Positions 5,247 to 41,840 of a stretch of 55,953 nucleotides of DNA are shown piece by piece. The stretch comes from a virus (taxonomy: Duplodnaviria; Caudoviricetes). The DNA is taken from the IMG/VR virus record IMGVR_UViG_3300009136_000007, positions 1 to 55,953 of that record; one strand, written 5' to 3'. Position numbers and translations under genes: made by a program. Position 1 is the first letter of the stretch; every line of letters starts with the position of its first letter. Below the pieces are notes generated by a model. That model saw only the letters and a list, made by a program, of their open reading frames with translations, was not told the origin of the DNA and did no database searches.

Positions 5247-5266
5247 TTAAAATTAAATAAAATTAA

Positions 5267-21600: not shown

Positions 21601-21617
21601 TACAAGAGTAAATTACT

Positions 21618-21662: not shown

Positions 21663-21687
21663 ATTAACATTTTTATTATATTATATT

Positions 21688-22515
21688 ATGGCAAATCAAG
21701 CTAAAAAAGCAGTAGCTAAAACCGAGGTTGCACCTCAACCAATTACTACAAAAAAAGTAAAAGTAGAACCAGCTAAACCTAGCTGGGAAATTAAAGATAG
21801 AACCTATATTTTAAAAGGTTCGTTTACTCCACTAACATCAACATTACCATCTAGGCATTCTGCTAGATTCCCTTTATTGTGGTTCGATGAAGAAACTGGA
21901 GAACAAAAAGAATTAAGATATGCTACAAATCAAAACTCACCACTAGTAGAAGAACAAAAGGGTGAATCAACACTTGGGCATGTTATATTTAAAAACGGTA
22001 CTTTATTTGTACCTAAACAAAAACAAAATTTACAGAAACTATTATCTATTTACCACCCAGCCCTAAACAAAAAATACTACGAGTTTAGCAAGGTGGAAAA
22101 AGCTGTTGATGATCTTGTTTATTTAGAAATGGAAATTGAAGCTTTAAACGCGGCTAAGTCTATGGATATTGATCAAGCAGAAGCTATATTAAGAGTAGAA
22201 GTAGGATCTGAAGTATCTAAAATGACTAGTAGAGAAATAAAAAGAGATCTTCTTATGTTCGCTAAGAATAATCCAGATTTATTTATTGATCTAGCTAATG
22301 ATGAAAACGTACAACTAAGAAACTTTGCTATTAAAGCAACGGAATCAGCTATAATTAAGCTGTCTGCAGACCAAAGAACATTTGTTTGGGCTTCTAACGG
22401 AAAGAAACTTATGACTGTACCTTTTGATGAGCACCCATACTCAGCTATGGCGGCTTTCTTTAAGACAGATGAAGGCTTAGAAGTTTTCAAGTCTATAGAG
22501 AAAAAGTTTCTATAA
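21688..22515 (+). CDS. Hypothetical head-assembly/structural-region protein
   Basis: Clean ORF downstream of the capsid gene; no recognisable motif. Confidence 0.7.
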   Translation: MANQAKKAVAKTEVAPQPITTKKVKVEPAKPSWEIKDRTYILKGSFTPLTSTLPSRHSARFPLLWFDEETGEQKELRYATNQNSPLVEEQKGESTLGHVIFKNGTLFVPKQKQNLQKLLSIYHPALNKKYYEFSKVEKAVDDLVYLEMEIEALNAAKSMDIDQAEAILRVEVGSEVSKMTSREIKRDLLMFAKNNPDLFIDLANDENVQLRNFAIKATESAIIKLSADQRTFVWASNGKKLMTVPFDEHPYSAMAAFFKTDEGLEVFKSIEKKFL

Positions 22516-22533
22516 CATGTAATACTAATATAT

Positions 22534-22557
22534 AGGAGATCGCTTCGGCGGTCTTCT
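22534..22557 (+). promoter_or_regulatory. cUUCGg tetraloop hairpin (mRNA stability element or weak terminator)
   Basis: AGGAGATCGC-TTCG-GCGGTCTTCT with no U tract. Confidence 0.7.
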
Positions 22558-22583
22558 CTGTATTATAATAAAAAAACTAACAA

Positions 22584-23276
22584 ATGGCAATAAGTGTAGA
22601 CACGGTTTATAAAACAGTCTTATTAATACTAAATAAAGAACAACGAGGCTATATGACGCCTGACGAGTTCAATAAGATAGCTACTCAAGTTCAGCTTGAA
22701 ACTTTTGAAAACTACTTTGAAAGTTTAAACCAACAACTTAGAGTGCCAGATAACGATAGCGAGTATGCTGATCGTATAAAAAATATTGATGAAAAAATAG
22801 CTATATTCAAAAAATATGCAACAGCTAGTTATTCAACAGACCACTTCACATTACCGACAGAACTATATAGATTAGGTACTGTTATTTATAAAGATGAAAT
22901 AGAAGCTCAGTTAATTCAAAGAAACGATCTTCTGTATGTTAACCAATCACCTTTAACCAAACCCACTGAGCAATACCCGTTATATTTATACGAGGACAAC
23001 AAGCTTTACTTGAAGCCCAACGATATACAAGCTAATATCAGTGTGTCTTACGTTAAGAAGCCAGCTGATGTTATTTGGAATTTTGAAATTCCAGCAGGTC
23101 AAAACTACTACCAATACATAGTTAGTGGTTCTCAAGACTTCGAACTAGATGTATCAGAACAACCTGAGGTTATAATAAAGATATTATTATATGCTGGAGT
23201 AGTCGTGAAAGATTACAACCTAGTAAATCTAGCTGCTCAACAAATACAAGCAGAACAAATAAATCAAAAAAGCTAA
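22584..23276 (+). CDS. Head-tail adaptor / tail ring protein
   Basis: LNKEQRGYMTPDEFN and YVKKP motifs; position after the head genes. Confidence 0.7.
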   Translation: MAISVDTVYKTVLLILNKEQRGYMTPDEFNKIATQVQLETFENYFESLNQQLRVPDNDSEYADRIKNIDEKIAIFKKYATASYSTDHFTLPTELYRLGTVIYKDEIEAQLIQRNDLLYVNQSPLTKPTEQYPLYLYEDNKLYLKPNDIQANISVSYVKKPADVIWNFEIPAGQNYYQYIVSGSQDFELDVSEQPEVIIKILLYAGVVVKDYNLVNLAAQQIQAEQINQKS

Positions 23277-23282
23277 TAAACT

Positions 23283-24506
23283 ATGCCTACACCTAATGGA
23301 GGTTTAATAACCGAAAATAATCGTCAGTACTACGCGGGAGCGCAAAGCTTTTTATCTACCGCTAACCAGACAGTATTTGGACCAACAACATTTGATACAA
23401 ATTTAGTTTTTGGTAGCTATAACCCTGTAGAGCCTAACTACTCTTTAAACAATTATAAACTATACACTGCTGCCCCTGGAGATCTCGTGTACACAGAGTA
23501 CACAGCTAACTATAGTATCACTGATAATAAAATAACCTTCGCTACTGGTCTAGCTTTAAATACAGCTGTAGCTGTTCAACTAAAGTCACAAACAGGTGGT
23601 AGCTACGGAAACAAAGATGCGGTTGGAAATACTGTTGAGGAAAACTGGGGATCTTATTCTTATACTAAGCTAAACGACGTTATTAGTAACTTCATGGTTG
23701 CATACGTTGGAACTGGTAAAATAATATCTGACGTAAAAAGAACAGATGTTGTTTTCTTTGCTAAAAGAGCAATGCAAGAGTTTAGCTATGACACACTAAA
23801 AAGCGTTAAGTCGCAAGAATTAAGTATACCACCTAGTTTAAGTGTGCCTATGCCACAAGACTACGTTAATTATGTTAACATGTCTTGGATAGACCGCTCT
23901 GGTATTAAGCATATTATATACCCAACAACGTTAACAAGTAACCCAACAGCTATACCATTACAGGACAGCAGTGGTGTACCAACTCAAGATAACTTTAACG
24001 ATAACACTCAGGGTACCTCTATTACAGAGGAAAGATGGGACACTAACGGAATCGGGGTAATAAACAATCAACTACAAGATGGATCACCTGTGTGGGCTAA
24101 TATATATGGTGGAGGTTTTGGTCAAGGTTTTGCTTGGCAAAATGGCTTCTACGGAATACAACCAGAGGTTAGTCAGATAAATGGTTGGTTTACTATAAAT
24201 GAAAGAGAAAATACTTTTTCTTTTTCAAACGATCTAGTTGACCGTATAATCATTTTAGAGTACATTTCTGATGGTTTAGCTTATGACTTAGATACTAGAG
24301 TCCCTAAGATGGCTGAAGAAGCTATGTATGCTTATATTTTACACGCTATAGTTTCTACTAGAGCTAATCAACCAGAGTACTTAGTACAAAGACTACGTCA
24401 AGAAAAAAGTGCTAAATTAAGAAATGCTAAAATAAGATTATCAAACATTAAACTTGACGAGTTTGTGCAAGTTATGAGAGGTAAATCTAAATGGATAAAA
24501 CACTAG
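23283..24506 (+). CDS. Tail ring/tubular protein
   Basis: MPQDYVNYV and ILEYISDG motifs; position in the tail module. Confidence 0.7.
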   Translation: MPTPNGGLITENNRQYYAGAQSFLSTANQTVFGPTTFDTNLVFGSYNPVEPNYSLNNYKLYTAAPGDLVYTEYTANYSITDNKITFATGLALNTAVAVQLKSQTGGSYGNKDAVGNTVEENWGSYSYTKLNDVISNFMVAYVGTGKIISDVKRTDVVFFAKRAMQEFSYDTLKSVKSQELSIPPSLSVPMPQDYVNYVNMSWIDRSGIKHIIYPTTLTSNPTAIPLQDSSGVPTQDNFNDNTQGTSITEERWDTNGIGVINNQLQDGSPVWANIYGGGFGQGFAWQNGFYGIQPEVSQINGWFTINERENTFSFSNDLVDRIIILEYISDGLAYDLDTRVPKMAEEAMYAYILHAIVSTRANQPEYLVQRLRQEKSAKLRNAKIRLSNIKLDEFVQVMRGKSKWIKH

Positions 24507-24512
24507 AATTAA

Positions 24513-27500
24513 ATGGCTGAGATTAAAAATACTTTTCTAAAGTCTAAGATGAATAAAGACTTAGATGATAGACTTATACCTAATGGTGAGTATCGCGACG
24601 CACAGAATATATCTGTAGGCAAATCAGAGGACGCTGATGTTGGTGCTTTGGAAAACATGATAGGTAATGCTAGTGTAACTAGTATTTTACCTTACGACTC
24701 TAGCTGTGAAATTATAGGTTATTTTTCTGACGCTAGAAATAACAGGATAATAACATTTGTAACTAATTACACTGATCAAGATCCAGCTAGCCCAACGTAT
24801 GTTTCAGACTTTAACACGGCTAATCCTAGTCCACTTAAAGAGTGTCACATATGTGTTTACGACCAAAATAATCCTAATTACCAAAAAGTAGTGAGTGGTG
24901 AGTTTTTGAATTTTTCTACCACTAATAAAGTTTTAGGAGTTAGTCTAATAGAAAATTTGCTGTTTTTTACTGACGATAGAAATCAACCTAGAAAAATAAA
25001 CATTAATACAGCTATAGATAATACTAGTTATTACACTACGGAAGATACTATATCCGTAGCTAAGTATAATCCATATGAGCCTATAAGTTTACTTAAAAAG
25101 GTTGAACAAGAAACAACTGCGGCGTCTTCAGGTGTTGATTCTCTAACTCTGGATGATGCTAGTAATGTTGAAGTGGGAATGATTGTTGTAGCAAAAAACT
25201 TAGATCAAACAGCAGCTATTTCAGGTTCAGACTTTGTCACTGTTGGAGGTAAATCAGGTAACACGGTTACACTAGTCACTCAAGTCGGGGCTACAACCGT
25301 ACCAGTGCAGTATCTTGCTACAGTTAGTGATAATGCTAATGTTACTTTCTTAAAATCTACAATGACTAAAGAAGACCCCTCGACTGGTTGGCCAGGTGAT
25401 CCTGATCTGCTAGAAGAGGAGTATGTAAGGTTTTCTTATAGGTTTAAGTTTGATGACGGTGAGTATTCTATAATGGCACCGTTTACTCAAATAGCATATG
25501 TACCAAAACAAAAAGGTTATTTTCACGAAGGAGACGAAGAAACTGCTTTTAAGTCTACTATTTTAGACTTCATGGAGAATGAAATGAATAACATGGAGCT
25601 ATTGATACCTTTACCATCTAAAGGAGTGGACATAGAGTCTGAATATAAAATAACGTCTATAGATGTATTATACAAGGAATCAGATTCTTTAATTGTTAAA
25701 GTGTTAGAGAGTTTAACTATAGGATCTATACCTTCCGCAAGTTTACAAACTAGCACATACTCTTATCAATATCAATCAAGAAAACCATACAAAACACTAC
25801 CTCAATCTGAGATAATTAGAGTTTACGACAAGGTTCCTATTAGAGCTTTGTCTCAAGAAACTACCGGTAATAGAGTGATGTATGGTAACTTCTACGACAG
25901 ATATTCATCACCGGACTCTATAGATTACTACGTTGGGGCTTTTGCTAGAAACACTAACAACTTCGATTCTTGGGTTGAATACCCAAACCATAATATTAAA
26001 CAGAATAGAAACTACCAAGTAGGTTTTATTTTAGCTGATAAATTTGGTAGACAAACACCTGTTATATTATCACCAGTAGATTTGACTGGTTTAGATGCTG
26101 GTACATTGGAGTTTAAAGGTGGTTCAACTGTCTACAGACCCTACTATGACGGAAGTACTCAACCCAATATTCAACAATGGTTTGGAGATGCTATCCAGGT
26201 AGTTATTAGAAATAAAATATCAAGTGGATTAAACGATAAAAATACTTTAAGCGAAGCTGGTTTATATGCTATTCAATACCAAGATCCTACTTTTTCAGGA
26301 ATTGGTTTTTCTATAGATTCAGCATCATTTACTAATAGCTCTCAAACCCAGTTGCTGTTCACGTTAGACGCTACATACCCTAACAACGCTAGTGTGCCTA
26401 GAGTTGGAGATTACCTAAGAGGTGAATACAGAGACTATGTAAAAGTTACATCGATATCACTATTAGCTGGTAATTACACAGTAGATGCTGATGGAGCTAT
26501 AAACGACTCATACCTATATAAACAATACTTATTAAACGATTTAAAATTTGCTTATACTATAAACCAAATTGGATGGTATTCTTATAAGGTTGTCGTAAAG
26601 CAAACAGAACAAGAATACTACAATGTGTACTCTGCTGGTGCTATGAAAGGTCTTCCATATAATTACGATTCTTTGTCAGTGTCGCCAATTCTTGATGAAG
26701 ATACTTCTTTTATAACTTTACTAGGTGATAACATAAATAAAGTACCTAGAGACTTAACCGAGGTTGGGCCACAGGATAAATCTTTTAGAAGTTCTATAGG
26801 GTTATATGGAAGAGTTCAAAATCATAATGGAAATAATAGTCAGTTTTTTCCAGGTAGAACAACTTTTAACACTACATCAATAGAGGACTTGTTCACGTTG
26901 TTCGATATCAGTAATTTTACAAATAGTTTCAATAACCCTATACCTATAACAAACCCGCTTAATGCTTTTCATGGTTTCTTCAAGTCTGAATCGGATCCTT
27001 TCGTAGCCGAAATAAGTACCTCTAAAGACTCTAATTTACAGTTTGGTGCTAATAACAGTGTTTCAACACAAGCGGGTGGGGCTAACGTTAACGGTAATAG
27101 CGTAACAAATTCAATAACTTTACCAGTCGATACCGTTACTGGTGTCATAGAAATAGGTAGTGTTATAACTACTATTGCAGGTGTTCCGCAGACCGGAACA
27201 GTTGACTACGTTGTTGTTAATACTACAGGTGATTCTAGTCCTACCTTAACGCTTAATAGAGAGATAACATTATCAAACAACGATCCTCTAGTGTTTTCAT
27301 TAGATACATACAAAGATATTGCTACTTTAGCTGTTTTAGAAACACCACCCGTTGAATCCTTGTTGGATATATTTTGGGAAACTACAACTACTGGTTTAAT
27401 CTCTGATCTAAATGAAGATATATTAACTGGATCTGATGCTCCAGTAGGTTTAACTAGTTTAGGTTTTATTTATAAAGAAAATCAAAACCCAAACGGTACT

Positions 27501-29273
27501 GGTATTGGAACTGGTGATACTAATTCACCCTATATAACAGATGCTTTCTTCCCGCTTTCACCAGAAGGAGTTTCATTGCAAAATACACTTTTAAGTAGTT
27601 TTACTGTAACAGATAACAACTCACCAACTAACGACGTAAGCTCGTTCTTTGATGTTATACAAGAAACAACTCCTGGAGCCACGTTTGGTTCGTATAGGTT
27701 TAAGTTGAACTCTAATTCTTATAATTACTTTTCTAATACTTTCGCGACAAGTGGTAGTTATAATTTCTCCATAAGCGTTAAAGACATCAATGGTGATATA
27801 GTTGCTTTACCTTTTACAGGTTCTTTAACTAACATTGACCCATATATATCTCCATTTACGCCACCTATAATTGTGCCCGCTAGTTCACCATTACCTTTAA
27901 TAACGGTAAAGCGAGTAGACGGTTCTAGTGACAGCCTACGAATAGGAGACGTTGGTACTATCGTCAATGGTTCTTTTAGAATAGATGAAGCAGTAAACCA
28001 AGTTGGTGTATTCTTTACTAGTGTACCTCCAGTGCCTGTTAGTAACATACAAAATTCCGTAACTATAAATCACGAAACAGGACTTGCTTTTAGAGGTTAT
28101 GACTGGGCTGAAGGTTATTATGATTTGGATCTAGAAGTAAAAGATGCTTTAGTTTCTTTTTCGTCTGGACAAAATGGTATAGCTTCTCAACCTACAGAGT
28201 CTAGTGGAACAGCAACTAGTATAAACTATGAACAACCTGTTAGAGTTATACCTGGTGATTGCAACTTAGATACTGGTTGCCAGTTTGATCCTGCTAGTGG
28301 AACTAGAGAGCAATCATTCCCAGTCCAGGTGCCTGGAGGAAGGGTTTTTAAAGATTATGGCTGGAGATTTGGTTCTACAACCGGAGGCGTTCCTACTGGT
28401 TTTGTTACTGAAACAGGTAATGTTTCTACTCTTTCCAATGATGGTCTTAAACAAGGTACTGTTTTATTTGATTTAATGGTAGAGGCTGAAAAGAACACCG
28501 CTAATTTAACTGGTTATTTCAAATGGAGAATATGGTATAGATCTAGCAGTTCTAACGCTTGGTCTATAAGTAACGTTATAGATACCAATGGAGTTGATCT
28601 TAATACTAGCAACGGAGAAGTAGGTAATAACAACGGTTGGATTCAACCTGGCGCAAGTAATGATTTTGCATGTGTATCTAGTTCAGCAGGTACCGTTTCA
28701 CAAATACATATACCCGTAGCTTTAATCAAAAAAGGAGAATACTTTATACAAGTTAGAGGCTACAAAGATGTAAACTCTGGATCAGTTACCACTTGGATAA
28801 ACGCTACAGATGCTAACTACCCTACATGTGTACCTGTTAAAAGTACAAATATGATAAGTGGCACTGGTAGAGATGCTGATTGGTTCCAGTACAACTTGGC
28901 TACTACTGGAAATTCAGACACTTCTATATCGTGCGCTGCATCACTAACCGACACTGTTTACGCTAGAACTCCATACTCTCACGTAATGGGTCAGCTGTTT
29001 ACAACTCTTGATTTAACTATTGGTAAAACCGATATTGAAAATTTTGGTGAAAAATACTCTTACGAGTATGCTCCGGATGTTAGTAACACGCTTGGTGCTG
29101 ATATAGCTGCTCAATACGCTGCTGAGTTTATTAGTGATATAAACAATTCTAGCACAGGTAAAACTATACGCGGTGTCGTTAAAAACATCACAGGCATAGA
29201 TAGACTTCCTTGTAATACTTCAGGAGCATATCAAGATTTAGAAGTAAAAGTGTATTACAACACTAATTACTAG
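24513..29273 (+). CDS. Tail nozzle/stabilisation (crAss muzzle-like) protein, N-terminal part with a long beta-rich extension
   Basis: MNKDLDDRL..GEYRDAQN, LLFFTDDRNQPRKIN, RFSYRFKFDDGEYS and RNYQVG..DKFGR motifs. Confidence 0.75.
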   Translation: MAEIKNTFLKSKMNKDLDDRLIPNGEYRDAQNISVGKSEDADVGALENMIGNASVTSILPYDSSCEIIGYFSDARNNRIITFVTNYTDQDPASPTYVSDFNTANPSPLKECHICVYDQNNPNYQKVVSGEFLNFSTTNKVLGVSLIENLLFFTDDRNQPRKININTAIDNTSYYTTEDTISVAKYNPYEPISLLKKVEQETTAASSGVDSLTLDDASNVEVGMIVVAKNLDQTAAISGSDFVTVGGKSGNTVTLVTQVGATTVPVQYLATVSDNANVTFLKSTMTKEDPSTGWPGDPDLLEEEYVRFSYRFKFDDGEYSIMAPFTQIAYVPKQKGYFHEGDEETAFKSTILDFMENEMNNMELLIPLPSKGVDIESEYKITSIDVLYKESDSLIVKVLESLTIGSIPSASLQTSTYSYQYQSRKPYKTLPQSEIIRVYDKVPIRALSQETTGNRVMYGNFYDRYSSPDSIDYYVGAFARNTNNFDSWVEYPNHNIKQNRNYQVGFILADKFGRQTPVILSPVDLTGLDAGTLEFKGGSTVYRPYYDGSTQPNIQQWFGDAIQVVIRNKISSGLNDKNTLSEAGLYAIQYQDPTFSGIGFSIDSASFTNSSQTQLLFTLDATYPNNASVPRVGDYLRGEYRDYVKVTSISLLAGNYTVDADGAINDSYLYKQYLLNDLKFAYTINQIGWYSYKVVVKQTEQEYYNVYSAGAMKGLPYNYDSLSVSPILDEDTSFITLLGDNINKVPRDLTEVGPQDKSFRSSIGLYGRVQNHNGNNSQFFPGRTTFNTTSIEDLFTLFDISNFTNSFNNPIPITNPLNAFHGFFKSESDPFVAEISTSKDSNLQFGANNSVSTQAGGANVNGNSVTNSITLPVDTVTGVIEIGSVITTIAGVPQTGTVDYVVVNTTGDSSPTLTLNREITLSNNDPLVFSLDTYKDIATLAVLETPPVESLLDIFWETTTTGLISDLNEDILTGSDAPVGLTSLGFIYKENQNPNGTGIGTGDTNSPYITDAFFPLSPEGVSLQNTLLSSFTVTDNNSPTNDVSSFFDVIQETTPGATFGSYRFKLNSNSYNYFSNTFATSGSYNFSISVKDINGDIVALPFTGSLTNIDPYISPFTPPIIVPASSPLPLITVKRVDGSSDSLRIGDVGTIVNGSFRIDEAVNQVGVFFTSVPPVPVSNIQNSVTINHETGLAFRGYDWAEGYYDLDLEVKDALVSFSSGQNGIASQPTESSGTATSINYEQPVRVIPGDCNLDTGCQFDPASGTREQSFPVQVPGGRVFKDYGWRFGSTTGGVPTGFVTETGNVSTLSNDGLKQGTVLFDLMVEAEKNTANLTGYFKWRIWYRSSSSNAWSISNVIDTNGVDLNTSNGEVGNNNGWIQPGASNDFACVSSSAGTVSQIHIPVALIKKGEYFIQVRGYKDVNSGSVTTWINATDANYPTCVPVKSTNMISGTGRDADWFQYNLATTGNSDTSISCAASLTDTVYARTPYSHVMGQLFTTLDLTIGKTDIENFGEKYSYEYAPDVSNTLGADIAAQYAAEFISDINNSSTGKTIRGVVKNITGIDRLPCNTSGAYQDLEVKVYYNTNY

Positions 29274-29274
29274 T

Positions 29275-29303
29275 GTAATATATTAATAAAATAAGTGATA
29301 ATA
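29275..29303 (+). promoter_or_regulatory. Putative late promoter, class L
   Basis: GTAA-N16-GTGATAATA occupies the 35-bp intergenic gap. Confidence 0.6.
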
Positions 29304-29308
29304 AGAAT

Positions 29309-30652
29309 ATGTCAGCAACTTTAGAAGTAAAATATTTTAACTCTTTCTGGATAAAGAAGATTAAATCAATAGTCGATGCTGGTAACAACCTAGTAGAAGA
29401 CTTAGTTCCAGGCGCTTACGCAGCAAGCACAGCTACACCTAGCGAAGATTGGTATATTGAAGAATCTAGAATAAGAGGTGGTTACAATAATACCTCTGTT
29501 GACTTTGGTATAAAAGCCTACTTAGTTGAAGAAGAGACGAAACAACAACATAGATTTAACTCTATAATATATTCTGACATATTTAATTCTAGAACAGGAA
29601 TTAATAGAACTAACGTATTCTCTGTAGGTCAAGACATAACTAAATCAGCAGATCCAGCTAACGGTAGTATTCAAAAATTATACGCTGAAGATACTAATTT
29701 AATTTTACTACAAGAAGACAAAGTTAGTAGAGCGTTAATAGATAAAGACGCTATTTACTCTGCTGAAGGAAATGCGGCTATAACATCTTCAACTCAGGTT
29801 GTGGGTCAAATAGTACCTTACGCTGGTAACTATGGTATCAGTACTAACCCAGAGAGCTTTGCTGTCTATGGTTATAGAAAATACTTTACAGATAGAAAAC
29901 GTAACGCTGTTTTAAGGCTATCTATGGACGGTTTGACTGAGATATCTTCTTATGGTATGCAAGATTTTTTTAGAGATGAATTAGGTTCTCTAAACGCTTC
30001 AGATGATATAATTGGAGGTTGGGATATACATAGTAAAAACTATACGGTATCTATACAACAAAATGGAACTTACAAAACTTTAACATTTGACGACAGTGTT
30101 AACGGTTGGACTAGTTTTTTAAGTTTTAAACCTGGTTTTATATTTAGCTTAAATACTTCTTTGTATTCTACTCACGATGGTAAAATATGGCAACATTATA
30201 CTTTTGAAGACAACTCTACTGAAAGAGGTAAGTTTTACGGTGTTTCTAATAACTCAACTGTAACGTTTGTTTTCAATGCTAATCAATCATTAATCAAAAA
30301 CTTTAAAACTATAAACTACGAGGGCGGCAACGATTGGGAGATGCTATCAATGCAAACGTCAACTGACTCTGCTCTACCTATAACTAAAGCTATAAATATA
30401 CTCACTCAAGCTAGTAACTTAATAGATTTACAAAACCAACTATTACAGAATAACTTTAAAGCAAAAGAAAACAAATACTTTGCTAACTTAATAAACAATA
30501 CAATTTCACAACCCGGTGAGGTTCTTTGGGGTCAAGACGCTTCTGGTATCAAAGGTTTCTTTGCTACTGTACAAATGAGTGTTGATAATACCTTGGGTGG
30601 TAAAAAAGAATTATTCGCAGTCTCTACTAATTACGTAGAGTCATCGTACTAA
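29309..30652 (+). CDS. Tail nozzle/stabilisation protein, C-terminal beta-propeller part
   Basis: YGISTNPESFA..YFTD...VLRLSMDGLTEIS..GM propeller motifs; KNFKTINYEG. Confidence 0.75.
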   Translation: MSATLEVKYFNSFWIKKIKSIVDAGNNLVEDLVPGAYAASTATPSEDWYIEESRIRGGYNNTSVDFGIKAYLVEEETKQQHRFNSIIYSDIFNSRTGINRTNVFSVGQDITKSADPANGSIQKLYAEDTNLILLQEDKVSRALIDKDAIYSAEGNAAITSSTQVVGQIVPYAGNYGISTNPESFAVYGYRKYFTDRKRNAVLRLSMDGLTEISSYGMQDFFRDELGSLNASDDIIGGWDIHSKNYTVSIQQNGTYKTLTFDDSVNGWTSFLSFKPGFIFSLNTSLYSTHDGKIWQHYTFEDNSTERGKFYGVSNNSTVTFVFNANQSLIKNFKTINYEGGNDWEMLSMQTSTDSALPITKAINILTQASNLIDLQNQLLQNNFKAKENKYFANLINNTISQPGEVLWGQDASGIKGFFATVQMSVDNTLGGKKELFAVSTNYVESSY

Positions 30653-33056: not shown

Positions 33057-36000
33057 ATGTTTGAATTAGAAGGTGAACAATACTCATTAGAGCAAGTAAC
33101 TTCAGCTGCAGATCAATCTAATATGCCTCTTGAAGATTATTTAAAAAAATATAATATTAAAGAGCTAGAGGAAACTGTAGAAACGGTGGAAAAGCCAAAA
33201 GATGTTGTGGAAAAGGATGCAACTGTAACATCGATAGAACCGGAGCAAGCATCCGAGAGTACGGAATTAGAGCAGGTAGATACTTCTTTGGTATCAGAAG
33301 ATCCTGAACCAGTTGTAAGAAGAGGTAGAGCTCAAGTAAGGCAAAAAGAACTCGCTAATAGAAAACAAGCAATAGAGCAAAAAAAGCGTGATGACTTAAT
33401 CGCAGCCGGTATAAAAGCTGAACAATACGAGGAAGCTAAAAAGAACGTAGATGAAACGTTAACTGATGCTGGCTCTAGTATATGGAGCTACTCCCCTGAG
33501 AATATTTCAAATTTATATTCTAAAACAACTGGAGAAGCTCTTGATTACCAAGCTATAGAAAGCATATCTCCAATAGGCTCCTCAATGTCTTATACAGGTG
33601 TTTTTAAGCCTTATGGTAGCTTTTTAACTGGTGGGTTTAGTTACTCTGACTTTGCTGATAACGAAAAAATAAAAGGCATATCTATATCTGAGTTGCAAAA
33701 GGCAGATCAAGCTAACGCTGCTTCTAGTGCTTTAGAAAGTATTTTTGAAGAACATGGAGACAAGTCTGATGAATTTGTTTTAAGTCAAGGACAAGTTATT
33801 TTAAAAGGAAAAGACAAAAAACTTCAAGAACTATACTCTTCTTTAAGAACTTCAAAACCAGAGAACAAGCAACAAATAATAAATGAAATAAAAAAAGTGA
33901 GAGAAGACAACTCGCAAGAGTTGTTTGATATAAATACTGGTAATTTAACTAAGTATGATAAACTGCCTGAAGAGTCTAAAAAACAGTATGACAATATAGT
34001 TGAAAAAGCAGAAGAAAAAGCTTCAACAACAGAAATAGATCAACTAAACAAAGAGCTAACAAATTCTTACTCAAATTTAGTAGGTATATCAAAAAGAATA
34101 TCTAGTTTTATAGATGAAAACGGAGAAGATGAGATAACTAAAAAATCACAAACGACGCCACAGTATTTAGTTAGCGCCGTTAAAGATTTTTTTGGATCTG
34201 AGGAAACTACATATGGAGACTTAAGCAGGGTTCAAGAGATATCTAGAACAGGTGTTCTACCAGAAAACGTAAGTAAAATAAGTGGCGAACATCCATTAGC
34301 TAAAGCGTATAATAAAGCCTTAGAAGAATACGCTATATTAAACAGAGCTGTACAAACAAACACTGATCCGCTTTCAGAAAAACAAGAAGGTTTTTGGGAG
34401 TCAGCTGGAGATGTTTTACTAGAAAAAATAGATATGACTGGTGGTGTTGCGGCGCCTAAGGTAAAAGCCACCGCTAATCAAATATTTGTTGAATCAGTTG
34501 AAAAGGCTGGTTTAGGTAGAATAAATCAAGAAGAGGTTGACGAAGCAGTTTCTCAGAACTGGAAAAGCGTAGTTGGTGGTGGAGCTGTAGATTTAACACT
34601 TTTTGTGGGTGAGGTAGCGTTATTCAAAGGCGGTACAGCTAACAAGATAAGTAAAGGTTTTAAGTACATAGAAAAAACATTTAAAGCTAGTGAAGCTGCA
34701 AAGTCTAGTAAGTTGCTTAGAAAAGCTGGGGACTTTGTTATAAAAGGTATGGATGAAGCTGCTGTTTTTACTGGTCTTGAATCAACGAAAACAAGTCTTG
34801 GCTTGTCCCAACAATCAACTAGAGAACAAGAATGGGCTACGGCTACTTTTGGTTTCGCTTTGGGTGGAGGTAACTCTTTAGGTTCAAGCATTCTTAGAGC
34901 CTTACCAGCTAAAACAATATTTTCACCTATAACAGCTCAATTATCTAAATCAGATCTAGCTAGAAGCGCCGGTAATAGGTTTGTCAACGCTAATGCCGGA
35001 GCGTTTTCTTTTGAGTTTGCTAGAGCTGCAACCGCTGCTTTAGGCGAAGACGAAGAAGGTTATTACGATAGAAACCCAGAAGAGTTTATTAAAGAGTATC
35101 TGGCTGAAGTAGCTAAAATGAGCTTGCTTGGAGCTAAATCTATATTTCACAAGAATGGTGTATATAGAGCCGCCCAAAGAGACATGCGTTTGTTAAACTT
35201 AAACCCTACGTATGTAAATAGAGCTGCTAAAAGAACCGGTATAGATTCTTCATCAATTAAAAAACCTGGTGAAGACACTATAGATCAAATAGACGCTGCT
35301 AGAGCTGACAAAATGTCTGATATAGATGCTAAGCTGAAAACACAGCAAATAACAGGAGAGCAAGCTAAAAAAGAGATAGAAGACGTTAATAAAGACTACA
35401 ATATATTAGAAGCGGAGGTCGAACTAAATTTAGCTAAAAAAAGGTTTGATGCTGAAAGTAAGAGCGCTTTAAAACCAACTGATGAAAGTGTAAGAATACT
35501 TATTCAGAAAATGAAAAAAGGTGATAAATTCAACGATAAAGATAACAACGCTTTAGTTAATACCCCTCTACCTATAATCTACGATAGAATGGGAATAGAC
35601 TCATCTAGTAAAAGTTTAGAAAATAGATGGAATAGAGAGTTTGCTATTGAAGACGTAATGAATAACAATACAGACTTCAAAGCGCCTTATGAGTCAAAAG
35701 AAAGAGCAGATTCTTATAAATTTCTCGATGAAATTTTTGAAATTGGAGGTCAAATACAGCTACTTAAAAAGACGAAAGACAGAAACGAAGCACAAGAAAA
35801 AGAGCTGCAACAGCTTGAAAAAGATTACAAAGTATATGAGCCAGGTGGTTATAAATATGACAAGCTTCAGGACAAGCTAGATCAACTATACTTAAAACAA
35901 AGGTTAGCAAGTAAAGCTCAAGCTGAAGACGTTTTAGGTGCTACGCAGGAAGGTGAATCAGTTTCTGTTAGATCTGCTGAGGATTTCCAGAAGAAGTATG

Positions 36001-39000
36001 AATCTATAAATAAAGACGGGCAAGATGTTAGATCTAGTGATGGTTTTTACGACGCTAAAAATAAAATTTTCTATGTAAACGAACAAGTTGTCGCAGCTAC
36101 TAGAAACACAACCGTTGAAAAACACGAGGTTGGTCATTTTGTATTAAGAGACTCTTTGAAAGATAAAACTGGTAAAGTCACAGATAAAGGTATAAAGGTT
36201 ATAGACGAAGTCTTAAGTGAACTAACTCCTAAGCAAAGAGAAACTGTACAAAAACGTATTGACGATTTTTATAGATATGACGAAAAAGAGATTAACTCTC
36301 TTAGATCTAAACTAAAATCAGCACTTACCGAAGGAAACGCTGAAGAAGCAGAAAGTATAGTTGAAGAAATTGAAAAACTAGAATCTAAACCAAAGAAGGA
36401 AAAAAATAAAAAAGATTACTACGAAGAGTATCTTACTGTGCTATCGGACGCTATAAACGAAAAACAAATAGTATTTAAAGAAAACGTAGGTAACGCTTTT
36501 GAAAAGTTTGTTCCTTTTCTTAGAAAAAGGATGCCAGAACTAGAACTAAATGCTGATACTGGTAAAAATCTATTCGAGCTAATTAAAAGTTATTCTAAAG
36601 GCGAAAAACCTGGTATAGAAGCAGCTAAACAAATGTCTATAGCGGCAGAAGGTAAAGACACTAGCGGTCAAAAAGTTAGTAAATCTACATCTGTAGATTC
36701 TATAGAAAGAAAGTTAGAAGAGCTAGAAGATAAGTATTTTGATCAAGAAATAGATGAGTACCAGTTTGAGCAACAAAGAGATAAACTAGAAAAAGATCTT
36801 GTTAAAGCTGAAGAAGCTACTAAACTAGCTAAAGAAGTTAAGGCTGAGCTAGTAGAAACAGAAACTAAACCAGTAGAGAAAGCTGAAAATGTAGAAAAAG
36901 TAGTAAAAGAGGCTACCACAAAAGTTTTTGAAGCTAAAGAAGTTTCTGACAAAAATAAACAAATAGCAAGAACTAACGATGACATCGTTCAAGAGATGGC
37001 TGATTTGGGAGCTAATAGAATATCAGAAATAAAAGACCCTAAAGCTAAAAAAGCTATAGTTGACAAGTTAGGTGAAAACAATATTGGAGCTGTCACTGAG
37101 CTAGCTAAAAAAGCAGCTGCAACCAGTAGAGATCTACCTATAGACGATAACTTAAAAGTTAACTACGAAGAATTCTTTTTAGGTTTTAGTGAAGAGTTGT
37201 CTGCGCTTATAAACTCCTACAAAGCTAACGTTGACGGCAAGAAAGTTCCTTTTGGAGCTTATATGAACCAAAACCTTAGACTTAGATACGGTAGTATATT
37301 AAACAGGTCTCTAAAAGGTAAGCTTAAAGGTTCTGAAAGCTTGTCTAGCGATAAGAACATAAAAAAAGAGGTTGGATCATTTGTTGAAGAGTCTTCAAGT
37401 GAATCCACTGGTAGAGACGAAGGTAGAGTACTAGAGCAGATAGACGTCAGAAAGTTTGGACCAGCTAAAGATAAAGTTAACGAGATATCTGACATAGTCA
37501 CAGTTGAAGAAGGAAAGAGACCTACATACAAAGAGTTAACTGAGGAGTTTATAGAACCAGTGTCTGTAGAGTTATTCGACGTGCCTGGTAGAAAAATACA
37601 AGGTAAAGCTACTTTAACTGACACTGAAGCTAAGTCTTTGCAAAGATTATTTGTTAGTCCTGACAACGTTAGAAAACTTATAAAAACAATGCCTCCTTAC
37701 AACGTAGCAGGTAGTGAAACTACCATTGGCGAACGAGCAGAGAGTATTGATGTTTCTAAAGACACTAAAGGTAAGTCTATAGGTTTATCCAACAAGTTTA
37801 TAAAACAGTTCTATCAACCAGTCACTAGAGCTATACCTGGTGTCTCTAGCCCGAAAGGTAGAAGTTTAGGTGCTACGAGTCAAGGGCAAGTATACGAGCT
37901 TAAACCAGAGTTTAGAGGTAGAGTATCTAACGAAGCTGTAAAGCAAATTCAGAACAGCGTAGGTGTAACAGAAGCTGGTGTACCTAACGAAAAAATATCC
38001 GCAGCTAACAGAACCAAGTACGGCACCACTTTAACAGGTTTTGCTAAGACTTATATAGCTAATGTCATAAATGTGACAGGTAGATCTAAACAAACTAGCA
38101 AGCAAGAACAAGCAGATACTGGCGCTGGTAAAGCTAGTATTATGTTTAGTAAAACTGCTGAATCAAATGAAGAGTTTTCTAAAAAGTTTAAGTCTAAAGA
38201 AGTTAAGAAACTAGTCGAAGGTAAGTTTGAAAATCTTATAGCAAAAGCAAAGCTACCAGATACAGTAGCGCAGGAGATTAAAAACTTGATAAAAAGTGAG
38301 GATTTAAAACCTATAGAAATGTTTCAGGTTGTTTCAGATATAGCTTCACGGGACTTAAGTTTTACTGCTAAAAGAAGTTTTCAAGAAGGATTAATAACTG
38401 ATTTAATTAAAGCTGAAGGAGGAGACTTTGGATCTGTTCTAGTTCAAAACTTAGGACAAGTTAGAAGAATATTTAAAAAAGAATACGAAGCTATAGGCTT
38501 TGGTACAGAAGTATCACAATTAAAAAAGTCCATAAAAGGTGATAATAAAGAGGTTAGAGACGCTAAAGTTCTTGACTGGTTATTATCGGTATCTAGATCT
38601 GTTAGATCAAGTAGTAATAAGAGTTTATTATACGTTTCTACCAATAAAAAATTATTCGACGCAGAATTGAAAGGTATTCTTGGAAAAGATTCTGACTTTG
38701 AAGCGGTTCAAAAAAAGTTACCTTCTGGAAAAGTAGTATCTTTTATAAAATATAAAGGAAAAGGATTAGAGGGTTTTCAAGATATTACTGAATTAAAATC
38801 TAAAGGTTTTAGAGTTTATGGCGAAAAAGTTTCTGAGCAAGCTGATAAAGCTAGAGAACTTGCTTTAAACAAAATAGATTCACTTAAAGAAAGACTTAAT
38901 AAAAAAGAGATAACTAAGGGTCAGTATGATTCTATGGTTGACTCTTACTTGAGTTTAGTAAGTTTGGATCAAAAAGGTTTAATAAGAAAGATGTCTAAGC

Positions 39001-41378
39001 CAAATGGTGAAATAATAGACGGCTACAGAGCTACTGAACTATACTTGGAGCACAAGATGTCTGCTCAAGAAATAAAAGAGCTATTATCGTCTTACGCTGA
39101 AGGTAAAGTAGAGAAACAAGAAGTACTAGATATTTTAGAGAAAGAAGCATTAGTGAATATAATGCCAAAAGTTTTAGAGAAAAAAATACCTAATTTCGCA
39201 GCAGAAAGAGCAAAAAACCCTAACTACAAAAACTCAGAAGGTTACGAGAGTAAAGAGTATTTAGATGCTTTAGAGCAATATAAACCACTTATCAAAGACA
39301 TGGACGGTAACAGTGTTATGTTTAGTAAGACTCAAAAAGAAGAAAAAGCTAAAAGCTTAGATAGAGCATTTAATGATATTATAGAAAATAAAACAGGTAT
39401 ACCTAGTAAAAAAAGATTTGGTATAGTTGAAGCTACAACTAAAGGCGCTGGTCAAGGTAGACTTAACTTCATTATACCGCCTTCGCAAGAGGACTTTGTC
39501 GGTTTATTATACACCACTCTTGGTAAAAAAGAAGTTGGTGATAGTCAAATGCAATGGTACAAGGACAATTTAATAACTCCTTACGCTAAAGCCATGAACA
39601 AGCTTAGTAAAGCTCGGGTATACATGCTTAACAACTACAAGACGCTTAAAAATCAACTCAATGTAGTTCCTAAAGATCTAGCTAAAAAAGTAGAGGGAAC
39701 TGACTACACTAAAGAAATGGCTGTTAGAGTTTATATATGGAATAAACAAAAAATGGAAGTTCCAGGTATAAGCAAGTCAGACGTTAAAAAATTAAGCAAC
39801 TTCGTTGTAGAAAATGAAAACTTGCAAACTTTTGGTGATCAATTAATAAATCTACAATTAGGCGATGGTTATGTTAAACCAAAAGAAGGTTGGGCAGCTG
39901 GAACTATAACTACGGATATACTTGAAGGTTTAAACACCACAAAAAGATCTAAATATTTAAAAAATTGGCAAGAAAATGCAGACGCTATATTTAGTGAAGA
40001 TAATATGAATAAGTTGCAAGCTGCTTACGGTTTAAACTACGTAAAAGCTATGAAAAACATGCTAGGTAGAATGAAGTCTGGTAGAAACAGAAACTTTCCA
40101 GGTGATAGCGCTACTGGTCGATTCACTGATTGGGTTACAGGTAGTGTTGGTGTTACGATGTTTCTTAACACTAGATCAGCTGTGCTACAAACAATATCTG
40201 CCATAAATTTTATTAATCTTCAAGACAACAATATTTTAGCCGCTGGTAAAGCTTTTGCTAACCAAAAACAGTACTGGAAAGATTTTAGTACGTTAATGAA
40301 TTCAGACTTCTTAAAAGAAAGACGTGGAGGATTACGTATTAATGTCAGCGAGGCAGATATTGCTGATATGGCTAAGAAAGATGGCGCCAAGGGAGCTATA
40401 AGTAAATTACTGCAATTAGGTTTTGCACCTACTCAAATAGCTGATAGTTTCGCTATTGCTTCTGGTGGAGCAAGTTTCTATAGAAACAGGATTAATACTT
40501 ATAAAAAACAAGGTTTATCAGACAAGGAAGCTGAGAAAAAAGCTTTTGAAGATTTTAGAGAAACAGCTGAAGAATCGCAACAGTCTTCTAGAGCCGACAG
40601 AATATCTATGCAGCAAGCTAGTCCAGTAGGAAGATTTGTGTTAGCTTTTGCAAACACCCCAGCTCAATATGCTAGAATAATTAAAAAAGCTGCTAGTGAT
40701 CTTAAAAACGGCCGAGGAGATGCTAAAACTAATATATCTAAGATAATCTATTACGGAGCAGCGCAAAACATACTTTTTAACGCTTTGCAGCAAGCTTTAT
40801 TCGCTACAGCTCTTAGTGATGAAGAGCCTGGAGATGAAGAAAAGGAAAAAAAGTATTTAGGTATTGCTAATGGAATGATGGATTCTTTACTTCGAGGTAC
40901 TGGTATTGGCGGTTCTGTAGTTTCAGTTGGTAAAAACGCTGTTATTAAACTACTTAAAGAGTTGAAGAAAGATAGACCTAAAATGCAAAATGTTGCTTCT
41001 GAATTATTGAAGATATCACCTCCAGTTTCAGGTAAGTATTCAAGACTTGTTCAAGCTGGTAAATCATATGATTGGAATAAGGATGAAATGAGAGAAAAAG
41101 GCTTAAGCTTAGATAACCCCGCTTATTTAGCTAGCGGTAAAGTTATTTCCGCTTTAACAAACATACCTTTAGATAGAGCTATTAAAAAAGCTAACAACGT
41201 TGTTCAAGCTACTACTCAGGATTTAGAAGCTTGGGAACGTATAGCTTTACTAGGTGGTTGGTCTGATTGGGAGCTAGGTATTAAAAAAGATAAAAAAGAT
41301 AAATCTAAATCAAATAAAACTGTAAGAAAATCAGGAGTAATTAGAAAAAAGGTAATAAGAAAAAAAGTAGTAAAGTAA
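33057..41378 (+). CDS. Giant internal virion/ejection polyvalent protein (2773 aa) with zincin peptidase and sigma70 region-2-like domains
   Basis: GFYD...HEVGH...EE zincin; ENNIGAVTELAKK...VPFGAYMNQNLR sigma-like segment; KVSKS, MFSKT and MFSKT linkers; helical, membrane-prone C-terminal region. Confidence 0.8.
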   Translation: MFELEGEQYSLEQVTSAADQSNMPLEDYLKKYNIKELEETVETVEKPKDVVEKDATVTSIEPEQASESTELEQVDTSLVSEDPEPVVRRGRAQVRQKELANRKQAIEQKKRDDLIAAGIKAEQYEEAKKNVDETLTDAGSSIWSYSPENISNLYSKTTGEALDYQAIESISPIGSSMSYTGVFKPYGSFLTGGFSYSDFADNEKIKGISISELQKADQANAASSALESIFEEHGDKSDEFVLSQGQVILKGKDKKLQELYSSLRTSKPENKQQIINEIKKVREDNSQELFDINTGNLTKYDKLPEESKKQYDNIVEKAEEKASTTEIDQLNKELTNSYSNLVGISKRISSFIDENGEDEITKKSQTTPQYLVSAVKDFFGSEETTYGDLSRVQEISRTGVLPENVSKISGEHPLAKAYNKALEEYAILNRAVQTNTDPLSEKQEGFWESAGDVLLEKIDMTGGVAAPKVKATANQIFVESVEKAGLGRINQEEVDEAVSQNWKSVVGGGAVDLTLFVGEVALFKGGTANKISKGFKYIEKTFKASEAAKSSKLLRKAGDFVIKGMDEAAVFTGLESTKTSLGLSQQSTREQEWATATFGFALGGGNSLGSSILRALPAKTIFSPITAQLSKSDLARSAGNRFVNANAGAFSFEFARAATAALGEDEEGYYDRNPEEFIKEYLAEVAKMSLLGAKSIFHKNGVYRAAQRDMRLLNLNPTYVNRAAKRTGIDSSSIKKPGEDTIDQIDAARADKMSDIDAKLKTQQITGEQAKKEIEDVNKDYNILEAEVELNLAKKRFDAESKSALKPTDESVRILIQKMKKGDKFNDKDNNALVNTPLPIIYDRMGIDSSSKSLENRWNREFAIEDVMNNNTDFKAPYESKERADSYKFLDEIFEIGGQIQLLKKTKDRNEAQEKELQQLEKDYKVYEPGGYKYDKLQDKLDQLYLKQRLASKAQAEDVLGATQEGESVSVRSAEDFQKKYESINKDGQDVRSSDGFYDAKNKIFYVNEQVVAATRNTTVEKHEVGHFVLRDSLKDKTGKVTDKGIKVIDEVLSELTPKQRETVQKRIDDFYRYDEKEINSLRSKLKSALTEGNAEEAESIVEEIEKLESKPKKEKNKKDYYEEYLTVLSDAINEKQIVFKENVGNAFEKFVPFLRKRMPELELNADTGKNLFELIKSYSKGEKPGIEAAKQMSIAAEGKDTSGQKVSKSTSVDSIERKLEELEDKYFDQEIDEYQFEQQRDKLEKDLVKAEEATKLAKEVKAELVETETKPVEKAENVEKVVKEATTKVFEAKEVSDKNKQIARTNDDIVQEMADLGANRISEIKDPKAKKAIVDKLGENNIGAVTELAKKAAATSRDLPIDDNLKVNYEEFFLGFSEELSALINSYKANVDGKKVPFGAYMNQNLRLRYGSILNRSLKGKLKGSESLSSDKNIKKEVGSFVEESSSESTGRDEGRVLEQIDVRKFGPAKDKVNEISDIVTVEEGKRPTYKELTEEFIEPVSVELFDVPGRKIQGKATLTDTEAKSLQRLFVSPDNVRKLIKTMPPYNVAGSETTIGERAESIDVSKDTKGKSIGLSNKFIKQFYQPVTRAIPGVSSPKGRSLGATSQGQVYELKPEFRGRVSNEAVKQIQNSVGVTEAGVPNEKISAANRTKYGTTLTGFAKTYIANVINVTGRSKQTSKQEQADTGAGKASIMFSKTAESNEEFSKKFKSKEVKKLVEGKFENLIAKAKLPDTVAQEIKNLIKSEDLKPIEMFQVVSDIASRDLSFTAKRSFQEGLITDLIKAEGGDFGSVLVQNLGQVRRIFKKEYEAIGFGTEVSQLKKSIKGDNKEVRDAKVLDWLLSVSRSVRSSSNKSLLYVSTNKKLFDAELKGILGKDSDFEAVQKKLPSGKVVSFIKYKGKGLEGFQDITELKSKGFRVYGEKVSEQADKARELALNKIDSLKERLNKKEITKGQYDSMVDSYLSLVSLDQKGLIRKMSKPNGEIIDGYRATELYLEHKMSAQEIKELLSSYAEGKVEKQEVLDILEKEALVNIMPKVLEKKIPNFAAERAKNPNYKNSEGYESKEYLDALEQYKPLIKDMDGNSVMFSKTQKEEKAKSLDRAFNDIIENKTGIPSKKRFGIVEATTKGAGQGRLNFIIPPSQEDFVGLLYTTLGKKEVGDSQMQWYKDNLITPYAKAMNKLSKARVYMLNNYKTLKNQLNVVPKDLAKKVEGTDYTKEMAVRVYIWNKQKMEVPGISKSDVKKLSNFVVENENLQTFGDQLINLQLGDGYVKPKEGWAAGTITTDILEGLNTTKRSKYLKNWQENADAIFSEDNMNKLQAAYGLNYVKAMKNMLGRMKSGRNRNFPGDSATGRFTDWVTGSVGVTMFLNTRSAVLQTISAINFINLQDNNILAAGKAFANQKQYWKDFSTLMNSDFLKERRGGLRINVSEADIADMAKKDGAKGAISKLLQLGFAPTQIADSFAIASGGASFYRNRINTYKKQGLSDKEAEKKAFEDFRETAEESQQSSRADRISMQQASPVGRFVLAFANTPAQYARIIKKAASDLKNGRGDAKTNISKIIYYGAAQNILFNALQQALFATALSDEEPGDEEKEKKYLGIANGMMDSLLRGTGIGGSVVSVGKNAVIKLLKELKKDRPKMQNVASELLKISPPVSGKYSRLVQAGKSYDWNKDEMREKGLSLDNPAYLASGKVISALTNIPLDRAIKKANNVVQATTQDLEAWERIALLGGWSDWELGIKKDKKDKSKSNKTVRKSGVIRKKVIRKKVVK

Positions 41379-41840
41379 ATGGGAAAAATAAGCGATCACA
41401 TAACTTTAAAAGAAGGCATTAACTCTTTTACAGCTAAAAGAAAAGGTATAGATAATACACCTAACGAGTACCAAATAACTAATATGTATATTTTAGCCCA
41501 TAAGGTATTTGAGCCTTTACGTAAGTGGGTTGGTGGACCGATAAAAATAAACTCTTTTTTTAGATCACCCGAACTTAACAAAGCTATAGGCGGAAGTTCT
41601 AAGTCACAGCACTGTGAGGGTAGAGCTATGGATATAGATGATGTCTACGGCCACAAGACTAACGCTGAAATGTTTGAATACATAAAAGAAAATTTAGACT
41701 TTGATCAAATGATATGGGAGTTTGGTAGTGATGAAAACCCAGATTGGATCCATGTAAGCTACTGCTCAACAGATGAGAATAGGAAAAGATGTTTAAAAGC
41801 TTACAGAGAAAAAGGTAAAACAAAGTACAAAGTTATATAA
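41379..41840 (+). CDS. Endolysin, Peptidase M15A family
   Basis: SFFRS...N..IGG...SQHCEGRAMD...WIHVS zinc motifs. Confidence 0.9.
   Translation: MGKISDHITLKEGINSFTAKRKGIDNTPNEYQITNMYILAHKVFEPLRKWVGGPIKINSFFRSPELNKAIGGSSKSQHCEGRAMDIDDVYGHKTNAEMFEYIKENLDFDQMIWEFGSDENPDWIHVSYCSTDENRKRCLKAYREKGKTKYKVI

Follow-up and report, generated by a model that had tools for sequence, protein, structure and literature searches.

A sigma70 domain 2-like module within a giant, probably virion-carried protein of a podovirus-like phage of Flavobacteriia

Results

A sigma-2-like domain inside a giant open reading frame

We analyzed the virus record IMGVR_UViG_3300009136_000007 of IMG/VR (Duplodnaviria; Caudoviricetes) over its whole length of 55,953 nucleotides, which is called the window below. 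The virion gene block of this uncultured marine phage ends in a single open reading frame (ORF) of 2773 amino acids (33057-41378, + strand), here called the giant protein, and within it lies a helical domain that resembles domain 2 of the sigma70 factors (Table 1). An earlier interpretation made from the letters alone (the sequence-only reading) had compared one stretch of the protein with sigma70 regions 2.1-2.4 and had proposed that a sigma-like factor is packaged, cut out and injected to redirect the host core RNA polymerase. The peptide that it quoted is present in this frame, at 37041-37316 of the + strand (residues 1329-1420). After analyzing the predicted fold, the profile alignments and the predicted docking, we consider it very probable that residues ~1298-1429 are a true, diverged homologue of sigma70 domain 2 (regions 1.2 to 2.4). 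This homologue sits in a new setting, in which, by analogy, a function as an injected sigma factor is plausible.

A search with residues 1205-1700 retrieved 104 giant relatives (1,668-3,656 amino acids) at 90% clustering and 140 representatives at 50% clustering; these relatives come from metagenomes, and all are unnamed or "hypothetical". A related-locus search with the single protein gave just 6 close loci, which were left out of the comparisons. Two conserved units are found in the segment, namely residues ~1290-1440 (the sigma-like unit) and ~1455-1700 (the companion domain), of which the second is even better conserved. The ordered helices of the sigma-like unit cover residues ~1298-1429, so that the domain exceeds the flagged stretch, and its first helix is placed where region 1.2 sits in the matched sigma chains. 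The most conserved positions, as read from a 33-row family alignment, are N1307, L1338, N1341, N1342, L1349, A1353, F1399, G1400, Y1402, L1407 and L1415. When whole giant proteins were aligned to the short domain with MAFFT, the query was split over 3,000 columns, and stretches holding the domain alone were aligned instead.

The predicted fold

The AlphaFold2 model of residues 1284-1445 comprises five helices, with a predicted local distance difference test score (pLDDT) of 85.0 and a predicted template modelling score (pTM) of 0.74. When this model was compared with 48,161 PDB chains by VIA-align, a search independent of Foldseek, ranks 1-22 were all sigma chains or chains of sigma-containing entries, with Z of 9.4-6.8 and root-mean-square deviations (rmsd) mostly of 2.4-3.5 Å over 80-105 residues. 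Among these rows are 8hkc_E (Z 9.4, rmsd 3.5 over 100 aligned residues), 8x6g_H (9.2, 2.6 over 91), 5h6x_B (8.9, 3.1 over 95 of 96), 4x8k_A (8.9, 2.5 over 99) and 8b3z_A (8.9, 2.4 over 80 of 80); the outlier is 8vjl_B, with an rmsd of 8.6. The proteins represented are sigma32, SigB, pro-sigmaK, region 2 of RpoS, domain 2 of SigA, the N-terminal domain of SigE, sigma28, SigI6, SigW, a sigma70 fragment and domain 2 of Taq sigma A, together with one engineered scaffold that has the residue range of Taq sigma A domain 2. The first unrelated row stands at rank 23 (Z 6.7, rmsd 6.4), with further extracytoplasmic function (ECF) sigma rows at lower ranks. In this tool, a common arrangement of helices alone can lift the Z of a helical model to ~14, so the weight of the result for the predicted model is in the uniformity of the top rows and in the coverage of whole sigma-2 domains. 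The companion domain, submitted to the same pipeline, obtained a best Z of 2.9 among the same chains and a Foldseek probability of at most 0.03, with no sigma rows, which indicates that the method does not return sigma factors by default.

Foldseek alone was not decisive, as neither the PDB nor BFVD gave a row at E <= 0.001. Of the 50 PDB rows listed, 18 were sigma factors or holoenzymes (for example 4x8k_A with a probability of 0.82 and 8r6r_F with 0.89), all at E >= 0.41, and 7 of the 50 BFVD rows were named phage sigma factors, the best at E 0.029. Absence of a sigma-2 fold had been named beforehand by the sequence-only reading as a ground for abandoning the idea; the fold was found in the predicted model, at VIA-align ranks 1-22.

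Profile alignment with sigma70

For the sequence comparison, we built a sigma alignment of 12 rows from rpoD, rpoS, rpoH and fliA of E. coli K-12, the phage's own sigma factor and seven relatives of the latter; the profile is small, and this sigma together with its close relatives makes up 8 of the 12 rows. Aligned by hhalign, the 78-row domain family matched sigma region 2 with a score of 31.4 (P 8.6e-5, 61 columns), compared with 12.0 for reversed profiles, a median of 9.9 and a maximum of 18.3 for 60 column shuffles, and 8.3 for the companion domain. The alignment pairs exactly the two blocks that had been likened to regions 2.1-2.4 by eye, and this likeness is thereby placed above chance.

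The sequence and structure registers agree (model residue 135 pairs with residue 446 of 1sig), and they map N1342 to N383, F1399 to F427, Y1402 to Y430 and R1408 to R436 of E. coli sigma70. In sigma70, D403, Q406, E407 and N409 serve core binding, whereas F427, Y430, W433, W434, Q437 and T440 serve melting and recognition of the -10 element, with W433, W434, Q437 and T440 making the -10/-12 contacts; the positions N383, F427 and Y430 line the -10 single-strand pockets. The best-conserved residues of the family sit on N383, F427 and Y430, the phenylalanine and the tyrosine being nearly invariant. At the position of D403 the domain has E, and its helices 2.1 and 2.2 are separated by ~10 more residues than those of sigma.

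Predicted docking on beta'

The sequence-only reading had proposed that the domain redirects the host core enzyme and had suggested modelling it with the flavobacterial beta' clamp helices. The complex models of the domain with residues 215-365 of Flavobacterium johnsoniae beta' (RPOC_FLAJ1) scored 0.76, 0.76 and 0.74, and three docking controls scored 0.44, 0.02 and 0.00, so that a contact is predicted with 0.76 against 0.44 for the best control. Of 80 solved complexes, 58 attain the docking mark, as do 2 of 110 mismatched pairs; these counts are only a rough guide here because our own alignment was used. At least 91% of the contacts agree among the runs, and the pLDDT of the partner is at least 75. 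The confident contacts involve domain residues 49-60 and 88-103, which are regions 2.1/2.2 in the hhalign register, as well as 134-139, and residues 288-319 of beta'. The predicted docking mode on the clamp helices is the canonical one. We lean toward the view that the domain binds beta', with support that is in silico in kind.

The companion domain

The companion domain gave a confident AlphaFold2 model (pLDDT 88.3, pTM 0.88), and in the Atlas nothing was found for it above 0.75. Its lack of a structural match argues that it is neither sigma 3 nor sigma 4; with the remainder of the ~490-residue segment being no sigma 3/4, the segment could provide at most a sigma2-only factor. Invariant polar residues of the companion domain are found in GRS.G.TSQ and LKPEF motifs.

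We examined the pairing of the two domains by hidden Markov model (HMM) searches in 158 giants of more than 2,000 amino acids, a set that is biased toward these domains since it was retrieved with residues 1205-1700. The sigma-like domain was detected in 61 giants and the companion in 144; 47 contain both, 14 the sigma-like domain only and 97 the companion only. In 47/47 giants with both, the sigma-like domain lies upstream. The companion-only giants cluster together in 96 of 97 cases (the singleton P0100 was left out), and the upstream 200 residues of those 96 align to the sigma-like family with a probability of 94.2 (P 1.1e-7, 92 columns). The sigma-like domain and the companion are thus probably a constant unit that occurs in two diverged subfamilies, as judged from these alignments, with the ~240-residue companion coming after the sigma-like domain in nearly all of the relatives analyzed.

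Architecture of the giant protein

A zincin protease had been placed upstream of the sigma-like domain by the sequence-only reading. The HExxH motif is conserved, being aligned in 15 of 17 diverse relatives, and 139 of the 158 giants have an HExxH that precedes the domain by 156-520 residues; it is a candidate zincin motif, for which no Pfam or PDB match was found. The proposed limits of the segment fared likewise in part. At the C-terminal end, a junction of the MFSK type is conserved, where the companion closes with AD.GAGKS..MFSK and the sequences diverge directly after; the KVSKS linker proposed for the N-terminal end is present but is not conserved in the 17 relatives.

Both MFSKT copies of the giant protein follow S-I or S-V, each at a module boundary, and most of the 17 relatives have an xFSK/xFSQ motif where the C-terminal module begins. 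The frequency of the pattern M[FL]S[KNERT] is 0.58 per giant compared with 0.14 in shuffles. On these sequence grounds, the xFSK junctions are candidates for cleavage by the HExxH peptidase of the protein itself. The slot between the two junctions holds a Zeta_toxin/AAA_33 kinase domain in the relatives P0090 and P0101 and a DFDDTLA-containing module in the consensus of the 17 relatives. Most invariant columns among these relatives fall in the C-terminal module, whose nearest Atlas clusters are free-standing viral hypothetical proteins of ~700 amino acids at 0.98; clusters bearing LPD39/LPD38 were found at 0.93-0.94 and serve as leads only. Perhaps the C-terminal module is an ancestral core and the cargo modules were joined to it.

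The whole giant protein matched only GvpG in Pfam (16.7 bits, below the cut-off), with no match to an LPD family, and it matched no PHROG family; phmmer found 0 matches among the PDB sequences at E <= 1. Searches of 50,697 phage records, a collection from which records close to the window may be missing, with the gene (megablast) and the protein (tblastn) gave no match. Evidence for a polymerase catalytic domain was sought as a Pfam, PHROG or PDB sequence match and as a D.D.D motif, and none was found in the giant protein. In the hydropathy profile, a single weakly hydrophobic segment (residues 505-523) rises above the threshold, and with just one such segment we make no claim of membrane insertion. 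The giant coding sequence of Flavobacterium phage elemoA (3,694 amino acids) occupies the same genome position, bears the annotation of a structural protein and likewise contains an HExxH.

The phage's own sigma factor and the genomic context

The phage encodes a separate conventional sigma factor with regions 2 and 4 and no region 3 (Table 1). This protein aligns to E. coli sigma factors, matches phrog_351 (E 3.7e-25) and gives Sigma70_r2 and Sigma70_r4 in Pfam at 23.0 and 23.4 bits, both just under the cut-offs; across the seven pieces searched against Pfam at E <= 10, everything except this sigma gene was sub-threshold noise. Its metagenomic relatives number in the thousands (8,000 candidates, each at E <= 0.001), and tblastn of the protein against the 50,697 phage records gave no match. 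With a conventional sigma gene of its own in the phage, the embedded module would be an addition and not a replacement, and it is not the sole route to reprogramming RNA polymerase.

The record is estimated to be 87% complete, with a G+C content of 35.5%. Its - strand gene set includes ribonucleotide reductase, thymidylate synthase, MazG, a primase-helicase, an exonuclease and the sigma factor. Terminase matches were found in 87 records, namely 68 Flavobacterium, 15 Cellulophaga, 2 Tenacibaculum and 1 Maribacter phages and 1 uncultured podovirus, the last with a terminase of 62.7% identity to that of the phage. Its nearest cultured phages by terminase infect Flavobacteriia, and we describe the phage as podovirus-like and as one of Flavobacteriia.

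Table 1. Features of the window discussed in the text (positions refer to the 55,953-nucleotide record; aa, amino acids)
Feature	Position	Strand	Remark
~32-nucleotide repeat, 3 copies	715-746, 54118-54149, 54561-54592		common core GGCT[AG]TTGTCAC; near both record ends
47-nucleotide direct repeat, 8 copies	2118-6990	+	62-100% identity to reference copy
GroEL-like gene	8570-10126	+	phrog_5725, E 8e-136
GroES-like co-chaperonin gene	13462-14067	+	phrog_13932
Large terminase	14287-16512	+	
Portal	16513-18918	+	
Run of virion structural PHROG families	20176-30652	+	
ORF of 1586 aa	24513-29273	+	matches part of phrog_14478
ORF of 447 aa	29309-30652	+	matches separate part of phrog_14478
Giant ORF, 2773 aa	33057-41378	+	last gene of virion block
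HEVGH (aa 1023-1027)	36123-36137	+	candidate zincin metallopeptidase motif
KVSKS (aa 1206-1210)	36672-36686	+	proposed N-terminal linker
Sigma-2-like domain	36924-37376	+	conserved family domain aa ~1290-1440 (~150 aa, helical); contains 37041-37316
Companion domain (~240 aa; aa 1455-1700)	37419-38156	+	ends AD.GAGKS..MFSK
MFSKT junction 1 (aa 1696-1700)	38142-38156	+	candidate processing site
Variable cargo slot (aa 1701-2087)	38157-39317	+	other modules in relatives
MFSKT junction 2 (aa 2088-2092)	39318-39332	+	directly before C-terminal module
C-terminal module (aa 2100-2773)	39354-41375	+	most conserved part of protein family
Endolysin gene	41379-41840	+	directly after giant ORF
Conventional sigma factor gene, 253 aa	52592-53353	-	regions 2 and 4, no region 3

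Several further features were observed along the record. In Flavobacterium phage elemoA, a cpn10 gene likewise lies just 5' of the terminase. Two of the three copies of the ~32-nucleotide repeat are intergenic, and the repeat is a possible regulatory site. The 47-nucleotide repeats fall inside the ORFs 1701-3080 and 5267-7567; the second of these matches tail-fibre PHROGs, which argues that the repeat encodes a recurring peptide stretch of fibre proteins. The two adjacent ORFs that match phrog_14478 cover positions 1-186 and 923-1257 of its 1474, and these matches suggest a splitting or rearrangement of a large virion protein there.

Discussion

Overall, after weighing the structural and sequence data, we provide a putative mechanism for the sigma-2-like module. 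The giant protein would be packed in the capsid and would leave it with the DNA, perhaps being cut at the xFSK junctions by its own HExxH peptidase. The module would then dock on the beta' clamp helices of the host core RNA polymerase through its region 2.1/2.2 helices, and, once docked, it would guide the earliest phage transcription as a minimal specificity factor of the sigma2-only kind, much like T4 gp55. Our data cover the homology and the predicted fold, the conservation and pairing of the modules and, in silico, a canonical docking mode; that the protein is packaged, cleaved and delivered, that the module truly binds the polymerase and that it directs initiation at promoters are steps that we infer. 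By analogy, the carrier is probably a protein of the polyvalent type that is carried in the virion, and the position of the gene together with the architecture of its product makes it likely that the domain reaches the host cell inside a virion protein. Taken as a whole, a virion-packed sigma-2-like module acting as a minimal specificity factor is the best explanation that we can offer, and we hold it tentatively, as falling a little short of probable. A fuller version, in which the companion replaces sigma 3/4 in a two-domain virion-delivered sigma that is released at the xFSK junctions by the HExxH peptidase and starts early transcription before any phage protein is made, seems doubtful to us.

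Many observations weigh against this explanation. PF04542 (Sigma70_r2) was absent when the whole protein, residues 1205-1700 and residues 1329-1420 were searched against Pfam at E <= 10, and a six-frame PF04542 scan of the record at E <= 10 had its sole match at 53018-53248 on the - strand, in the other sigma gene. The HMM profiles of the family returned chance rows and no sigma from the PDB sequences, and the hhalign probability of the sigma-like family against sigma region 2 was 60%. The core-binding residues of sigma70 region 2.2 are not kept (Q406 is L, S in the family; E407 is G; N409 is S), the positions of W433/W434 hold Q/N, and, with the register extended by hand, Q437 is L and T440 is G. 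There is no sigma 3/4 after the sigma-like domain, and Sigma70_r4 gave no match in the segment at E <= 10. The Z values are subject to the helical caveat given above. Docking scores such as 0.76 signify likeness and are not proof that this copy binds, since such sigma-beta' complexes have already been solved; moreover, the beta' used is that of a stand-in host, and the prediction is silent on affinity. Cleavage and virion presence are argued from gene position and analogy, and the N-terminal boundary of the segment is not conserved among the 17 aligned relatives. No cultured phage in the searched collection carries the giant protein, and the giant proteins of elemoA and of MW202828.1 (3,859 amino acids) have no detectable homology to the sigma-like or the companion domain. 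The sequence-only reading had also invoked non-host "class E" promoters; a 9-mer search of 16 intergenic stretches yielded A/T-rich words only, with no shared or "class E" promoter motif. Finally, a complete sigma factor is encoded by the same phage.

Among the functions considered, the gp55-like specificity factor ranks first, because the best-conserved residues are those that line the -10 single-strand pockets in sigma70 and because the partner domain is obligatory; a sigma-competing blocker and an RNA polymerase tether rank next. As a blocker, the delivered sigma mimic would occupy the beta' clamp helices, compete with the host sigma and cause an early host shut-off, and the phage's own sigma would take over later. 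The sigma-2 fold and the predicted canonical docking would serve such a role equally, and the other residues at the positions of W433/W434/Q437/T440, the missing sigma 4 and the separate complete sigma gene all fit it. However, the equivalents of N383/F427/Y430, as liners of the -10 pocket, would be needless for a pure blocker and yet are the best conserved; few copies per virion would be unable to titrate thousands of polymerases, and the obligatory companion domain is left unexplained. We therefore regard the blocker as unlikely. In bacteriophage T7, transcription by the host polymerase helps pull the DNA into the cell. A module held in an ejected protein at the envelope could similarly capture the host polymerase at the entering genome end, so that transcription helps pull the DNA in. 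The predicted docking on beta', the location of the module in mid-protein, the position of the giant protein where podoviruses have their ejection proteins and the doubtful N-terminal release (no conserved upstream junction was found) speak for such a tether. Against it stand the single weakly hydrophobic segment in the whole protein and the conserved xFSK junctions, which suggest that modules are released, and we consider the tether improbable.

Two other explanations would remove the injected sigma altogether. The helical domain may have descended from, or converged on, the sigma-2 arrangement and may have no role with RNA polymerase, being for example a structural or packing element. This would account for the missing Pfam and HMM matches, the hhalign probability of 60%, the helical Z-score caveat and the absent core-binding QE..N motif. 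It is hard to reconcile with VIA-align ranks 1-22 that belong to one family, mostly at rmsd 2.4-3.5 Å over whole sigma-2 domains, with the agreement of the sequence and structure registers, with a complex score of 0.76 against 0.44 and with sigma-signature residues that are the most conserved; its probability, in our estimate, is low, lying below that of the blocker and above that of the tether. Least likely of all is that the giant protein is not packaged and is a late intracellular protein, with the sigma-like module active in the cell that makes the phage, as in late transcription for instance. Such a protein is hinted at by the nearest cultured phages, whose giant proteins lack detectable homology; yet the gene lies inside the virion block and before lysis, its positional counterpart in Elemovirus bears the annotation of a structural protein, and the modular HExxH architecture is like that of proteins described as injected in PMC5512222.

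If the virion-packed specificity factor is real, a transcription-initiation module would join the known cargo of polyvalent proteins. The companion domain would then be a candidate new partner that binds the polymerase or DNA. The many metagenomic relatives suggest that the strategy may be common in phages of marine Flavobacteriia, and, as the cultured phages with the closest terminases have Flavobacterium, Cellulophaga, Tenacibaculum and Maribacter as hosts, it may bear on how infection by abundant marine phages starts.

Comparison with known systems

The module resembles sigma70 domain 2 (PF04542) in its predicted helical fold (Z up to 9.4), in a profile that aligns in register, in the conservation of the N383/F427/Y430 positions and in the predicted contact with the beta' clamp helices via regions 2.1/2.2. 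It differs in lying below every sequence-library threshold and in having other residues at Q406/E407/N409 and W433/W434, and, whereas sigma factors are free proteins, it is embedded at residue ~1300 of 2773.

Another parallel is T4 gp55, a minimal late sigma factor that is sigma2-only: both would be phage factors that consist essentially of a sigma-2-like domain. Chain F of the entry 7d7d, which we take to be gp55 from the entry title, was matched by VIA-align with Z 7.7 and rmsd 4.0 over 115 aligned residues, and rows named gp55 or late sigma factor appear in BFVD at E 0.029-0.6. T4 gp55 requires gp33 and the sliding clamp. However, gp55 is a free protein made after infection, whereas the module described here probably belongs to a virion protein, where its partner is a different domain.

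The paper on polyvalent proteins (Iyer et al. 2017, PMC5512222) proposes that such proteins are processed by zincin-like peptidases, are delivered with the DNA and may jump-start transcription, and it states that every N4-like virion polymerase is fused to such a peptidase domain. As described there, the polyvalent proteins share with the giant protein a giant multi-domain build, an embedded HExxH peptidase-like motif, swappable effector modules and a place in the virion gene block. In contrast, the word "sigma" occurs 0 times in the main text of PMC5512222, and the giant protein has no Pfam LPD match; likewise, the limited literature searched, which includes that paper and PMC7824862, describes no sigma domain in a virion or polyvalent protein. 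Module swapping was observed among the relatives of the giant protein in the 17-relative alignment, in the Zeta_toxin/AAA_33 modules, and in sigma-like and companion domains that occur together or apart.

Phages are known to take over transcription by means of a virion polymerase (N4-like and crAss-like phages and phiKZ), injected modifiers such as T4 Alt, or sigma and anti-sigma factors made after infection. The giant protein resembles the virion RNA polymerases of N4-like and crAss-like phages in being a giant protein that would enter the cell together with the DNA for early transcription. Unlike them, it has no polymerase domain that we could find and would borrow the host core enzyme. If this is true, a third strategy would join the two that use a virion RNA polymerase or depend on the host holoenzyme, one in which only the specificity module is brought in and the catalytic core of the host is borrowed from the first second.

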